64,000 nt of DNA from a virus (IMGVR_UViG_3300023174_006147:20475-84474); one strand, 5' to 3'. Positions 29,309 to 33,260 are shown, counted from the first letter of the stretch. Numbers and translations: made by a program. The notes: generated by a model from the letters alone, not told the origin.

Positions 29309-29788
29309 TTATTTTTCTTGCCTTGAGGAAAAAACTTCTATTGCGGCTAGAATGTGTTCATCCCGCAGGCCTTCACCGTCTTCAATATACACTAGCCGTT
29401 TAGATTCAGTAAACTTTCTGTCATCAAAGCAAACCCAATCGCATTCACCATTGTCAGCGATCCACTGATTAATGGCAATTAATCTACCAATACCACGAAC
29501 AGTGCTTGTCACATCTGTATAATCAATGTTTGGAAAAATTGTTCTCCAATCATTGTGAAAATGTGTTGGATCAATCCCCCAATGTATTAAATCTTCTTTT
29601 AAAGTTTTTCCATAGGGCAAGTGATAATTGTGCATTGAGTTGGTTACAATTTTTGCACCAGACTCAATGCACAGATCATTGAGCAATTGAATTGAAACTT
29701 TATTACAAGCTAACCGCAGTTCAGATACCATGACTGGAGAACTTACATTAATTATTGGACCATCAATATCTAAAAATATTATTCTCAT
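29309..29788 (-). CDS. HAD-family protein (RNA-repair-associated type)
   Basis: FLDIDGP, CFDD. Confidence 0.75.
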   Translation of the reverse strand: MRIIFLDIDGPIINVSSPVMVSELRLACNKVSIQLLNDLCIESGAKIVTNSMHNYHLPYGKTLKEDLIHWGIDPTHFHNDWRTIFPNIDYTDVTSTVRGIGRLIAINQWIADNGECDWVCFDDRKFTESKRLVYIEDGEGLRDEHILAAIEVFSSRQEK

Positions 29789-30666
29789 CTTTTAATTAAT
29801 TCTTCTGTTAAGTCTATAAAACGAGAAAAGTCATGTAGCTTGTTCTTCCAATCATCAGGAATTCCAGTCAGTCCATAAAATGCACCAGCAATTTGTCCTG
29901 TGACAGCGCCAACAGTATCAGCATCGTCCCCGAGGTTAACTGCCTGCAAGATAGCATCCTTAAAGTTATCCGTGTGATACACGCACCATAGGGCAGCATG
30001 AAGAGTATGGATAACATATCCAGACGAAGAAACATATTCGCGGCTAACTTCAAGTGAAGTGAGAATGTTCTTTACATCTTCTACCCAATGATCTTTAGCA
30101 GTTACATTAAAAATCCGACTCTTTTCAGTGGTGTAGATTGCATTAAGTAACACTTCCGCCATAAGTTCACATGAATGCAAACAAGCAGGTGAAGCATGAG
30201 TTGTCTCACTCTGCACGAGTGCAGTTGCCTTTGCCTTTTCTTCGTCATCGTAATGCGCAAGTACTGCTGGACTAAGTCGCATAATTGAACCATTGCCTGC
30301 GCCGAAGAAATCTGGATTATTTTTAGTTTCACCGGTTTTTTTAAAGTTAGAAATTGCAGTGCGAGTAGTGTTGCCAATATCAAAGCACCGGCCAGTAGAC
30401 GAGTTTGCACCGTTATAATACCAGTCTGCAAAGCGATTAAGAAGATCGGTTTTATCAAGGTCTCGATTAGAAACTAGACTATCTGCAAGGCAAAGTGCCA
30501 TACTAGTATCGTCAGTCCAATAACCTACAGGAAGATTGAACGGTCCACCACCAAGCATGTCAGTAACCGGTTCAAAAGTATCACGATCTCTAAATTCTAC
30601 AGTGGTACCAATGGCATCACCCACAGCAAGCCCAATAAATGCTCCAGCTAATTTGTCTTTTAACAT
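29785..30666 (-). CDS. ADP-ribosylglycohydrolase (DraG/ARH family)
   Basis: GDAIG, WTDDT, GNGSIMR, GDDADTVGA. Confidence 0.93.
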   Translation of the reverse strand: MLKDKLAGAFIGLAVGDAIGTTVEFRDRDTFEPVTDMLGGGPFNLPVGYWTDDTSMALCLADSLVSNRDLDKTDLLNRFADWYYNGANSSTGRCFDIGNTTRTAISNFKKTGETKNNPDFFGAGNGSIMRLSPAVLAHYDDEEKAKATALVQSETTHASPACLHSCELMAEVLLNAIYTTEKSRIFNVTAKDHWVEDVKNILTSLEVSREYVSSSGYVIHTLHAALWCVYHTDNFKDAILQAVNLGDDADTVGAVTGQIAGAFYGLTGIPDDWKNKLHDFSRFIDLTEELIKR

Positions 30667-30698
30667 GATAACTCCTAGTGTAAAAAAATATTATAACA

Positions 30699-33260
30699 CT
30701 AGAATGAATTGCTGTCAACTATCTCCATGCCAAGATTTGCTATATAAGCCATTAACTCTTCAATCTCTTGACTGGTTGGATTTAATGTGCCAATAGCTTG
30801 ATCTAATTGATCAACAGTTATTTTATTTGACCGTGCTGCACTCTTAATCAATTGTTGAACAGCAGGTAAATCTCCCAATGGTGTTTTTTTCTTAGCAATA
30901 TCCTGTATTGGAAAATCTAAAAGTTGCAATTGTTTGAACCCAATATACTTGGTAGAGCCATCTGAAAAGGTTACATCTGCGATTTTCATTATATTGCCTA
31001 CATTAGCTATCTTACCAGTTTTGCCGGCAGCAGGCCCATCAATAACTTTAACAGAATCGCCTTGTTTAAACGAATGGACAGGTATTACTTCAGGTTCAGA
31101 AGTTTTAATTTTTTCAATTTCATTAGGATAAAGAAATGTCTTATCATCAGAATCGTCTAATTTTACTATAACATTGCCACTTTTTTGAATCTGAGTTATT
31201 GTGCCAGTTTTTCCTGTATTGTGCGTTCCTATGATTTTTACCTTATCGCCCTCTGAATATTGTTTAGGTGTTTTTACTTCTGGCTCTGGTTCCCACTTGA
31301 GATTGTCTAAGTTCAAATCTGGATCATTTTTATCGGGGTTATCAAGTTTTTTAACAGTGAATGTATCATCACCGTATTCGTCTATAGCCTGATCATATTC
31401 ATTCTGAGTGAGGAATTGTCCCTGATAAAGCGGTGTAAGTCCTGGCATAGTAACTTCATAAGCAGCATCTATTAAATTAGGATTTTCAGCTTCGGCTTTA
31501 ATCTTTTCAATATTTTTTAAGGGAACATCGATGGCAACCTTATTATCAAATTCTACATCAACTAGTGGCTTTGTAGAATAAGCGTATGATACTTCACCAG
31601 TTTTACCGGTGTATTTATGATTACCGATGATCATAACCTTATCACCGTTTTTAACATCACCAATTTCTAGAGACTTTGGAGCAGCGCCGACTTTTTCAAG
31701 ACTTGCCAAAGGAACATCATACAATTTTTTACCGTTGTCCAATTCTAATGTAGTATCTTTAAAAGAATCATGTACATCGGTAACAGTAGCGATATCACCT
31801 GCGTTAGAATGCTTGCCAATAATTTTTACTTTATCGCCTTTTTTAATTTTATCATTGTCAGTTTTTGTATCTAGTATTTTAACTTGGTGTGGCTTAAGAA
31901 GACCGTACTCGCCACCCTTGAAGAATATCTCGATGTTACCAGAAGTATACATGTGGGATATAGTTCCAGATTGACCATAGTATGCACTTTTAGTGTCAAT
32001 AACTTCAACTAAATCACCATATTTAGGATCAGGAGTTTCTGAATCAGCTTCACTTTCGTGTTTAATATCTTTAATCTTGAAGTCGTTGGTCCAATTTTCA
32101 CCATCCAACTTCACTGATACTTCGTCATAATTGGTGTAAACATACTGTACTTCACCGGACAGCCCGTAATAGTGATTACCCTTGGATTTAACAGTAACAC
32201 GGTCACCAATTTCATATTTTCCAGGTGTAATGATTTTAGGCTTGCCTTCGGGATAAACTTGTAGTTCTAGAAACTTCATGATATTTTTCATGAGACTTTC
32301 TTGAACAGCATAATATGCACCACGAATAAAGACTTCATTTCCAGAAGCAATAGCCCCCGTCAGATCTTCTTGATCTAAATCAAATCCTTTGACTATTCCT
32401 TCAGGAGTCATGATGTTTTCAAGCTCAGTTAAAGGCATGAATTCTTTTGGGATGTCACCTGCTTCAATAGCTTTTTTAATTGAGTTAAGATTGTATTCTA
32501 GATTATATTCCCCAAAGAGATTATTAAAGATAAAATCATATTTTGCTCCTAGTTTTTCTCGATTGGTTAACACGAAATCTTTTAAAGGAGCAAGTAGTTC
32601 GTAGTCCAACATTTTTGGATAGGATCCTCTATCTAAAATTAAATCCTTGGTGTTTCGACTCCAGCTAAATGAAAATCCATCTTTGGGAAACATTACATAT
32701 ACTTTGCCATATCCCGAAGCCTGACTTTTATCACCTGATACGAATGATGAATTATCTCTTCTTGCTTCGAATCCAGCTGCTTCCATGCCTTTGTTAAAAA
32801 TATCACTAAGGCGTGAACTACTGCTCATTACACGGCGCTCATCAAATGGTTTACCATAGAGAGCATCTTCAGTGGACTTGATGCCGCGATAAAATACTTT
32901 GGCTTCAGAAGTTTTAAAATCTGGATTTAAATCAGTATAAACTTTGACGATTTCTGTACAATTTTTTGCAATCCTCGTCATTAAATTATAAAATTGGATT
33001 GGAAGATTATTCTTTTCACTTTTAAGATTTGACTTCTGTTGTTTTAGGGAATCAATTTCTGCATAGAGTCCCTGCTTCATTTTTTCATATTCAGCAGCAA
33101 CTGAATCAGGCACTTTCATATTATTTGCAAGGGCCGCGCTTTCTTCATAATCAGTGATTTTCTTCAGCAGTTTTTCTAGTTTTGGCAAGTTAAGGGACAT
33201 TCCCTTGCGCTCACCCGGCTTCAGTTCGGATTTAAAGATTTCTATAATTCTCATAAACAT
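30699..33260 (-). CDS. Mosaic protein: ART-like domain, multiple KOW repeats, RpoC-like segment, sigma70 region 1.1-like C-terminus
   Basis: FYRG...SFVS...YG..EV; repeated GDKVKII; PGLTPL..EYGDD; KITVDQL...EIEELMAYI. Confidence 0.7.
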   Translation of the reverse strand: MFMRIIEIFKSELKPGERKGMSLNLPKLEKLLKKITDYEESAALANNMKVPDSVAAEYEKMKQGLYAEIDSLKQQKSNLKSEKNNLPIQFYNLMTRIAKNCTEIVKVYTDLNPDFKTSEAKVFYRGIKSTEDALYGKPFDERRVMSSSSRLSDIFNKGMEAAGFEARRDNSSFVSGDKSQASGYGKVYVMFPKDGFSFSWSRNTKDLILDRGSYPKMLDYELLAPLKDFVLTNREKLGAKYDFIFNNLFGEYNLEYNLNSIKKAIEAGDIPKEFMPLTELENIMTPEGIVKGFDLDQEDLTGAIASGNEVFIRGAYYAVQESLMKNIMKFLELQVYPEGKPKIITPGKYEIGDRVTVKSKGNHYYGLSGEVQYVYTNYDEVSVKLDGENWTNDFKIKDIKHESEADSETPDPKYGDLVEVIDTKSAYYGQSGTISHMYTSGNIEIFFKGGEYGLLKPHQVKILDTKTDNDKIKKGDKVKIIGKHSNAGDIATVTDVHDSFKDTTLELDNGKKLYDVPLASLEKVGAAPKSLEIGDVKNGDKVMIIGNHKYTGKTGEVSYAYSTKPLVDVEFDNKVAIDVPLKNIEKIKAEAENPNLIDAAYEVTMPGLTPLYQGQFLTQNEYDQAIDEYGDDTFTVKKLDNPDKNDPDLNLDNLKWEPEPEVKTPKQYSEGDKVKIIGTHNTGKTGTITQIQKSGNVIVKLDDSDDKTFLYPNEIEKIKTSEPEVIPVHSFKQGDSVKVIDGPAAGKTGKIANVGNIMKIADVTFSDGSTKYIGFKQLQLLDFPIQDIAKKKTPLGDLPAVQQLIKSAARSNKITVDQLDQAIGTLNPTSQEIEELMAYIANLGMEIVDSNSF

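Follow-up and report, generated by a model that had tools for sequence, protein, structure and literature searches.

A mosaic jumbo phage protein joining an ADP-ribosyltransferase-like domain to KOW repeats and RNA polymerase-derived modules, beside an ADP-ribosylglycohydrolase gene

Phage T4 packages the ADP-ribosyltransferase (ART) Alt in its head and injects it, and Alt, ModA and ModB act on host RNA polymerase (RNAP) and translation proteins. To our knowledge, packaged ARTs that reprogram host RNAP are known from T4-like phages only, and for jumbo phages, most of the proteins delivered with the DNA lack an annotation. ARTs are also found paired with ADP-ribosylhydrolases (ARHs), as in Tre1-Tri1 and DraT-DraG; Tri1 is the immunity hydrolase of an arginine-ADP-ribosylating toxin. 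ART domains also occur in some phage polyvalent proteins, multidomain effectors that are delivered together with the phage DNA (Iyer et al.; PMC7824862, PMC9503650). Here, we analyze a 64,000-nucleotide stretch of viral DNA (IMGVR_UViG_3300023174_006147:20475-84474; the window in the following) and focus on one large open reading frame (ORF) on its minus strand, whose product, called the big protein below, combines an N-terminal ART-like domain (N-domain) with KOW repeats and two segments homologous to parts of the host transcription machinery, next to an ARH gene. By analogy, the nearest known logic appears to be that of T4 Alt combined with the ART-hydrolase pairs Tre1-Tri1 and DraT-DraG. 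Our overall reading, to which we assign a probability of about 50%, is that the big protein is a late, virion-packaged and probably ejected ART-like effector aimed at host transcription, whose phage also encodes its own eraser.

The window comes from a viral record of 84 kb, the completeness of which is estimated at 22%. Since an identical copy of the big protein sits on a 334-kb contig, the phage is a jumbo phage with a genome of about 330-380 kb. The ORF of 853 codons described in a first-pass annotation made from the sequence alone is present at 30699..33260. Homologues start at the equivalent of MRI, as does the database copy (P0001, 851 aa), and a TATAAATA box overlaps the first ATG, so the true start is most likely 33254, giving a protein of 851 aa. 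Relatives in databases are named hypothetical or after KOW repeats alone, and the automatic JGI names of homologues, NusG and L24, likewise mirror these repeats only. A megablast search of the region against 50,697 phage records gave no match. In tblastn searches of cultured phages, Agrobacterium phage Atu_ph07 was the sole match to the region, through the N-domain, and the C-terminal 183 residues of the big protein had no match. The first-pass annotation had read the protein as a mosaic of ART, KOW, RpoC and RpoD-like parts paired with a hydrolase. This architecture is real, and the big gene and the hydrolase gene stay paired in 10 related viral contigs; the sequence observations of that annotation were confirmed and its overall reading is partly supported by the evidence set out below.

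The N-terminal part of the big protein includes a PGERKG motif and a long helical hairpin (residues 15-85; 33006..33218, minus strand), in which P15, G16, E17, R18 and K19 are at least 90% conserved and AlphaFold2 (AF2) predicts helices at residues 26-46 and 52-79. These are followed by the ART-superfamily-like domain (residues 86-340; 32241..33005, minus strand), within which a helical insert (residues 209-292; 32385-32636, minus strand) varies in length or is missing in paralogues while the β core is retained. A first model of residues 1-345 (predicted local distance difference test, pLDDT, of 88.5) gave matches that were swamped by the hairpin (residues 25-81), for which VIA returned generic coiled coils only. 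Because the hairpin dominated fold searches with the 345-residue N-terminus, the core was folded separately (residues 86-345 with 42 relatives, AF2; pLDDT 95, predicted template modeling score 0.88). A VIA-wide search with this model resulted in low Z scores throughout (best 5.8) but a uniform list: 22 of the 23 matches spanning both ends of the β core are ART-superfamily structures, and the remaining rows match the helical insert alone (model residues 124-207). The best match was BC2332 (Z 5.8, 122 residues aligned, root mean square deviation 4.1), followed by the rifampin ART Arr (Z 5.1, 91 residues, 4.3) and further by a PE-like toxin (Z 4.4), diphtheria toxin (4.0) and AvrPphF ORF2 (3.9). 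Exotoxin A (ExoA), cholix, the Rhs toxin TreX, DarT, DarTG, tankyrase and PARP1, PARP10, PARP13, PARP15 and PARP16 also belong to the core-spanning matches, as does chain 6kyf, listed merely as an anti-CRISPR protein, which we take to be the ADP-ribosylating AcrIF11. BC2332, a small ART-superfamily protein without known function and not a protein toxin, is classed by SCOP in the ADP-ribosylation superfamily (d.166.1.6; PMC3000352). The split β-sheet core of the ART fold (SCOP d.166.1) is weakly recovered in the predicted structure through these VIA matches. BC2332 and Arr, as minimal ART-superfamily folds, are the best structural counterparts of the phage β core, but identity is 8-12%, and the phage domain differs by its helical insert of about 85 residues and by other conserved residues.

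In BFVD, the significant matches were uncharacterized phage proteins and the first named sub-threshold matches were ART-PolyVal proteins. The big protein resembles the polyvalent proteins in concept, these being multidomain effectors of which some carry an ART, but would belong to another ART family, ART-PolyVal appearing as sub-threshold fold matches only. The only named relative of the N-domain is phrog_11975 (E 2e-28), whose function is listed as unknown. Searching 5.8 billion proteins with a profile of the core gave 17 relatives, all of them unnamed and lacking a Pfam domain, and the ESM Atlas returned unnamed viral clusters, the nearest named one carrying DUF2441 (score 0.83), which we take as a lead only.

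The motifs FYRG (residues 123-126), SFVS (172-175) and NEVF (308-311), previously taken as an R-S-E-like ART signature, are all present and fall on predicted strands β1, β2 and β5 of the AF2 model. In the model, R125 lies on β1, S/T175 on β2 and E309 on β5, which is the order of an R-S-E ART (Arg on β1, Ser/Thr on β2, Glu at the start of β5). Among 42 family members, R168 and E309 are invariant (42/42 each), N170 is found in 41 and R125 and S/T175 in 40 each; R142, S201 and D206 are also invariant or nearly so. T4 Alt, ModA and ModB have the same R...S...E motif order, and in a non-significant hhalign alignment the N-domain consensus LYRGI pairs with L-Y-R73-G74-I of ModB, whose R73A mutant is inactive. 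On the basis of a weak but very coherent fold match to the predicted core together with the conserved residues, we consider the ART assignment partly supported: the fold very likely belongs to the ART superfamily, and the domain is probably enzymatically active.

The big protein starts with the leader MRIIEIFKSE (33225..33254, minus strand), a candidate virion-targeting or propeptide signal, and leaders among its homologues begin MRI, MRL or MK..L.E. The first-pass annotation had noted the leader of the big protein. N-termini of this type recur in the window, where M[RK/N]IxE[LI]-type leaders are carried by seven otherwise unrelated ORFs (starts at 22464, 24218, 25618, 27698, 33254, 33278 and 38886). 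One of these ORFs (26340..27698) contains an HEVVH motif. In five of the leader genes (24218, 27698, 33254, 33278 and 38886), ATAAATA is positioned 4-6 nt before the ATG, a spacing shown by no other gene of the window and one that implies near-leaderless mRNAs. Judged by these shared signals, the leader-bearing ORFs look like a co-regulated set of packaged proteins. In P0003, a metagenomic relative in which a kinase precedes the big protein in one chain, the leader is supplied by the kinase and the internal copy is lost, as is expected of an N-terminal signal.

Virion location is documented for homologues. In Atu_ph07, about a dozen paralogues of the N-domain are arrayed in tandem; next come a 490-aa and a 778-aa protein, the latter with the N-domain fused to a Zeta-toxin kinase. 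The products gp53-gp65 (numbering counted from gp70, the primase-helicase, and checked by molecular weights) are all in the virion proteome determined by electrospray ionization tandem mass spectrometry, with 3-31 unique peptides each (PMC6102473 Table S5). They begin M[RK]WxQLxE, analogous to the M[RK]IxE[LI] of the window. Beside the array (record 38254-56934), gp65 resembles a nucleotidyltransferase and gp66 has a weak RNA-ligase match (PF09414, E 0.002) with an EKLDG motif; gp65 is in the virion proteome and gp66 is not listed there (PMC6102473). Taken together, the Atu_ph07 virion homologues, the leader and a late-type motif upstream of the gene support, through homology and motif only, a big protein that is made late and packaged in the virion. 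T4 Alt, too, is a large multidomain phage protein that has an N-terminal signal and a late-type promoter, and its packaging in the head agrees with the virion location of the homologues of the big protein.

The same findings could be explained by a non-catalytic internal virion protein. The N-domain family would then be structural or DNA-organizing in a large capsid, a role within the head or at DNA ejection would fall to the KOW string and the acidic region 1.1-like domain, and the neighboring hydrolase, phosphatase and kinase genes would be unrelated and kept by inherited gene order. This would account for at least 12 Atu_ph07 paralogues being virion proteins with good peptide coverage, for the tandem arrays of 4-6 N-domain copies that we found in other large viral contigs, for a KOW repeat number that varies in a spacer-like manner and for the fact that no ART family is detectable by sequence. 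We nevertheless consider it unlikely, since R168, D206 and E309 are invariant and R125, R142, N170 and S201 near-invariant in a manner resembling an active site, the fold matches are almost exclusively ART enzymes, two independent fusions with P-loop kinases point to enzymology and RNAP-derived modules have no obvious role in a capsid.

Two segments of the big protein are derived from the transcription machinery. The first, AYEVTMPGLTPLYQGQFLTQNEYDQAIDEYGDDTFTV (37 residues, 600-636; 31353..31463, minus strand), matches the RNAP β′ subunit of 7ye1 (chain D, residues 128-181) with E 1e-5 in a phmmer search of the PDB, so that the resemblance to the RpoC clamp noted in the first-pass annotation is significant. 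The entry 7ye1 is a Caulobacter crescentus RNAP (PMC9976885). RpoC fragments in a library of 1.8 billion proteins match with E 5e-5 to 8e-4, the closest being alphaproteobacterial. Each of the 80 rpoC loci retrieved from alphaproteobacteria shares 43-63% identity with the module over 35 residues. By sequence, residues 600-636 are homologous to the clamp-toe of β′ (E. coli β′ residues 143-180), which touches the non-conserved region (NCR) of sigma-70 in promoter complex formation as well as the activator Crl (PMC7822876; bioRxiv 10.1101/726851). Of the 49 family members, only 4 have the module, inserted between the fourth KOW repeat and an acidic linker, a distribution that marks it as a lineage-specific insertion. 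It is also found at the C-terminus of two unrelated leader-bearing phage proteins, namely P0052, where a DUF4116 domain is followed by two tandem copies, and P0062, a relative of which is located on a 381-kb viral contig. The modules of the big protein, P0052 and P0062 align with RpoC fragments over 46 columns without gaps, and the phage copies have common features absent from RpoC (LTQ, TFTV.K). This suggests a single capture from an alphaproteobacterial-type rpoC that was later shuffled among phage proteins, and the pattern fits a portable binding module. A first genome scan with exact 8-mers of the module returned nothing, and no second clamp-toe module was found in the 84-kb record.

The second segment is a C-terminal domain resembling sigma-70 region 1.1 (residues 795-853; 30702..30878, minus strand; PF03979), again in line with the first-pass annotation. 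PF03979 (Sigma70_r1_1) scored 24.1 bits in a six-frame search (cut-off 22.5; window 30705-30863) and 20.9 bits on the whole protein, and the family profile matched region 1.1 of Caulobacter RpoD (7ye1_F) with E 2e-7 and residues 6-63 of E. coli RpoD with E 1e-5. Region 1.1 of sigma-70 sits in the DNA channel of RNAP. The domain is carried by 18 of the 49 family members; the N-domain is the sole part common to all 49.

Alternatively, the big protein might act mainly by mimicry. It would then be a decoy or competitor whose region 1.1 copy blocks the channel of RNAP, or whose clamp-toe copy ties up the sigma NCR, a Crl-like activator or a sensor of host defense, and the N-domain would be inactive or of secondary importance. 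Both modules are indeed clear homologues of protein-protein contact parts (PMC7822876; bioRxiv 10.1101/726851), the clamp-toe is reused in other phage proteins, and the annotation of T4 Srd and Srh postulates that they are sigma decoys. Yet the part that all relatives retain is the N-domain, with invariant putative catalytic residues, and the conservation of a hydrolase and a phosphatase as partners is hard to reconcile with mimicry alone, which renders this explanation distinctly unlikely.

The clamp-toe module lies within an array of KOW-like repeats, and the region 1.1-like domain behind it. About seven had been proposed; the array is confirmed, but the count is six, with GDxVx[VI] cores at residues 352, 415, 475, 539, 671 and 734. 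Repeats 1-4 (residues 346-590; 31491..32225, minus strand) are defined by these cores and by Pfam KOW and SPT5-KOW matches and repeats 5-6 (residues 665-787; 30900..31268, minus strand) by Pfam, with PF23291 (KOW4_SPT5) at residues 732-753 (E 1e-7) and PF23287 at residues 670-706. The family profile matches SPT5 in the PDB with E 7e-15, and repeat number differs among family members. The acidic linker DPDLNLDNLKWEPEPEV (residues 646-662; 31275..31325, minus strand) is conserved and recognizable in 26 of 49 family members, distant ones included (e.g. ...LTWEPEPEV, DLEFEPMDEP), and may function as a short linear motif for binding or cleavage. The big protein shares real homology with the KOW domains of NusG/Spt5 and with region 1.1 of sigma-70, but it has neither an NGN domain nor sigma regions 1.2-4, and its modules are appended to the enzyme-like head of a probably virion-targeted protein. 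Surveys of jumbo phage and viral NAD/ADP-ribose systems (PMC7824862, PMC9503650) do not contain the term KOW and describe no KOW-linked ART.

The gene directly downstream of the big gene encodes an ADP-ribosylglycohydrolase of the ARH/DraG/Tri1 type without leader (29785..30666, minus strand). As first annotated, it is a hydrolase of the DraG/ARH type, matching PF03747 (ADP_ribosyl_GH) over the full length (E 6e-74, 1-287 of 287) with intact metal-binding Asp motifs (GDAIG, TDDTS and DDADT). Its best family matches are NF041672 Tri1 (E 6e-99, 331 bits) and DraG (E 3e-56, 191 bits), but both scores are below the respective equivalog cut-offs of 490 and 337, which makes it a family member and no equivalog of either. 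The arrangement resembles Tre1-Tri1 and DraT-DraG in that the ARH gene directly follows an ART-like gene, an order conserved in 10 loci; the phage ARH differs from Tri1 in covering profile positions 67-357 only, without the first ~66. The ARH stop overlaps the start (ATGA) of a leaderless gene for a HAD-family phosphatase (HAD_SAK_2; 29309..29788, minus strand; PF18143, E 4e-9), which has a DIDG motif at residues 7-10 and comes after ARH in 8 related loci. The closest ARH homologues of cultured phages, in Serratia phage BF and Xanthomonas phage XbC2 (~47% identity), lie ~4 kb from genes for a phage NadR-type nicotinamide mononucleotide adenylyltransferase and a PnuC transporter, which, as judged from gene content, suggests that NAD+ supply is a theme of Rak2-like phages. 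BF_0348, encoded upstream of ARH in Serratia phage BF, was considered as an N-domain relative and rejected as unrelated.

On the other side of the big gene, a Zeta-toxin/AAA_33-type P-loop kinase with the leader MKIKDLLNE is encoded divergently (33278..34033, plus strand; PF06414, E 6e-19); it also matches the polynucleotide kinase family phrog_505 (E 2e-8) and is the divergent neighbor of the big gene in 10 loci. The cassette of kinase, big protein, ARH and HAD is kept in 10 viral contigs with big-protein identity down to ~30%. In P0003 (1031 aa), the kinase is fused in-frame to the N-terminus of the big protein, resulting in the architecture Zeta-like kinase, ART-like domain, KOW, clamp-toe and region 1.1, and in Atu_ph07 gp53 a kinase is fused C-terminally to the ART-like domain. 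Such fusions in both, independent orders are good evidence of a functional link. The divergent arrangement in the window compared with the fusion in P0003 implies an inversion in one of the two lineages.

These partners could also be read as an RNA-end healing or modification set. The N-domain would be KptA/Tpt1-like and act on RNA phosphates by adding ADP-ribose, the kinase would be a polynucleotide kinase, the HAD protein a 3′-phosphatase, and ARH would remove ADP-ribose derivatives; with RNA bound by the KOW repeats, the set would counter host anticodon nucleases. The HAD family PF18143 is named after Swiss Army Knife RNA-repair proteins, the kinase matches phrog_505, the top structural match BC2332 is no protein toxin and NAD-dependent RNA repair in jumbo phages has been described (PMC9503650). 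A late-type promoter, a leader and virion homologues are ill-suited to a cytoplasmic repair enzyme, however, and ARH is closest to hydrolases of protein arginine-ADP-ribose. Region 1.1 and the clamp-toe further indicate RNAP rather than tRNA, and Pfam scans gave no KptA family match to the big protein or its N-domain, so that we regard this reading as very unlikely.

The genes of the cassette are preceded by two kinds of promoter signals. The palindrome TATTTATAAATA (33260..33271) carries TATAAATA on each strand, 5-6 nt from the ATG of the big gene and from that of the divergent kinase, and would provide both with a common T4-type late-promoter-like signal. ATAAATA is located 4-5 nt before the ATG of the big gene in 9 of 9 related loci. 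In case of ARH, a consensus sigma-70 promoter (TTGACA-17-TATAAT with TG extension; 30690..30718, minus strand) is located within the last codons of the big gene, 23 nt before the start codon of ARH, and is followed by AGGAG. This is the only 12/12 sigma-70 match within 29000-34300, and the TTGACA -35 element upstream of ARH is found in 9 of 9 related loci. In these nine loci, the late-type and sigma-70 signals are kept even where the neighboring coding sequence differs. By promoter similarity, the two signals would represent different temporal classes. The two promoter types distinguish the locus from Tre1-Tri1 and DraT-DraG and indicate that the big gene and ARH are no co-expressed toxin-immunity pair. 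An inverted repeat, CTAGTGT...ACACTAG (30679-30706), flanks the -10 element of the ARH promoter and might serve as an operator or form a hairpin in the 3′-terminal part of the big-gene mRNA.

Combining these observations, we propose the following scheme for an effector aimed at host transcription. Residues 86-340 would form a divergent ART with an R-S/T-E triad, most likely an NAD+-using modifier of a host macromolecule, and the tail a flexible string of six KOW barrels bearing both transcription-derived modules. The clamp-toe and region 1.1 copies may dock the enzyme on host RNAP or on the sigma-70 holoenzyme. The Zeta-like kinase, which has the same type of leader and diverges from the same palindromic late-type promoter, could act as a second writer. 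ARH, of the arginine-ADP-ribose hydrolase type, and HAD, both leaderless, would be non-packaged erasers made by host RNAP via the sigma-70 promoter from the onset of infection; they may limit or reverse the modification and thus shield the producing cell while new effector builds up. In a wider form of this scheme, the clamp-toe and region 1.1 pieces, captured from the host holoenzyme by jumbo phages of this group, would be portable addresses that direct various virion-ejected enzymes to host RNAP, including the new ART-like family, the Zeta-like kinase and at least two unrelated leader proteins ending in a clamp-toe, with subsequent erasure by ARH and HAD. As a whole this would amount to a timed write-then-erase circuit on host RNAP; we consider both the addressing and the circuit rather doubtful.

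Several results weigh against an ART-like effector that targets RNAP. Foldseek found nothing for the core in the PDB at E <= 0.001, a Pfam scan of 24 family core sequences at E <= 10 gave scattered single matches and no ART family, and a profile search against the PDB yielded only noise with a spurious epsilon-toxin match (E 0.03). Comparison of the family with T4 ModA, ModB and Alt by hhalign gave probabilities below 4%, and with a 7-sequence ModA/ModB alignment 2.3%. The VIA scores of the core are low (Z <= 5.8), and position 307, two residues before E309, is occupied by G, E, K, A, N or Q depending on the family member, so the N-domain is no canonical ExE or QxE enzyme. Of the first-pass annotation, the conserved R, S/T and E and, through the VIA matches to the AF2 core, the ART-like fold are supported. 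Region 1.1 in only 18 and the clamp-toe in only 4 of 49 members mean that RNAP docking, if real, is limited to part of the family. The N-domain paralogue arrays of other phages have no ARH gene next to them, and in Rak2-like phages the closest ARH homologues adjoin an unrelated upstream protein. The pairing of the big gene with ARH is hence specific to one clade and could, judging from these loci, be inherited gene order within it. Finally, TATAAATA as an exact octamer shows no enrichment over the window (9 occurrences, 6.3 expected).

Compared with T4 Alt, ModA and ModB, the N-domain differs by the absence of significant sequence or profile similarity and of a conserved ExE. Its catalytic-type domain is N-terminal whereas that of Alt is C-terminal, KOW repeats, clamp-toe and region 1.1 are not annotated in the T4 proteins, and the phage described here has a dedicated cassette of ARH, HAD and kinase. 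New relative to T4 Alt and Tre1-Tri1 are therefore a domain from an uncurated family, its N-terminal position, the KOW string, the RNAP modules, the kinase and HAD partners and the split promoters. The first-pass annotation had not included the partnership with the Zeta-like kinase and HAD, the existence of two promoter classes or the occurrence of the clamp-toe in other proteins. Elsewhere in the window, N-terminal sequences suggest what we take to be a ClpP-like protease (748-1350), a heme-oxygenase/bilin-reductase-like pair (52607-53780) and Hsp20 and DnaK-like genes (54143-56521); if so, these are unusual auxiliary genes.

In conclusion, the phrog_11975 family, which has no Pfam entry, is named hypothetical everywhere and accounts for a dozen virion proteins in Atu_ph07, gains a testable enzymatic hypothesis. 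The locus further provides a phage protein assembled from recognizable fragments of host RNAP β′ and sigma-70, which, if our reading is true, would be a compact case of molecular mimicry serving targeting. Should the clamp-toe copy bind the sigma NCR, it would be a natural probe of a contact implicated in promoter escape. The conserved division of putative writers and erasers between late-type and sigma-70 promoters makes the timing model testable.

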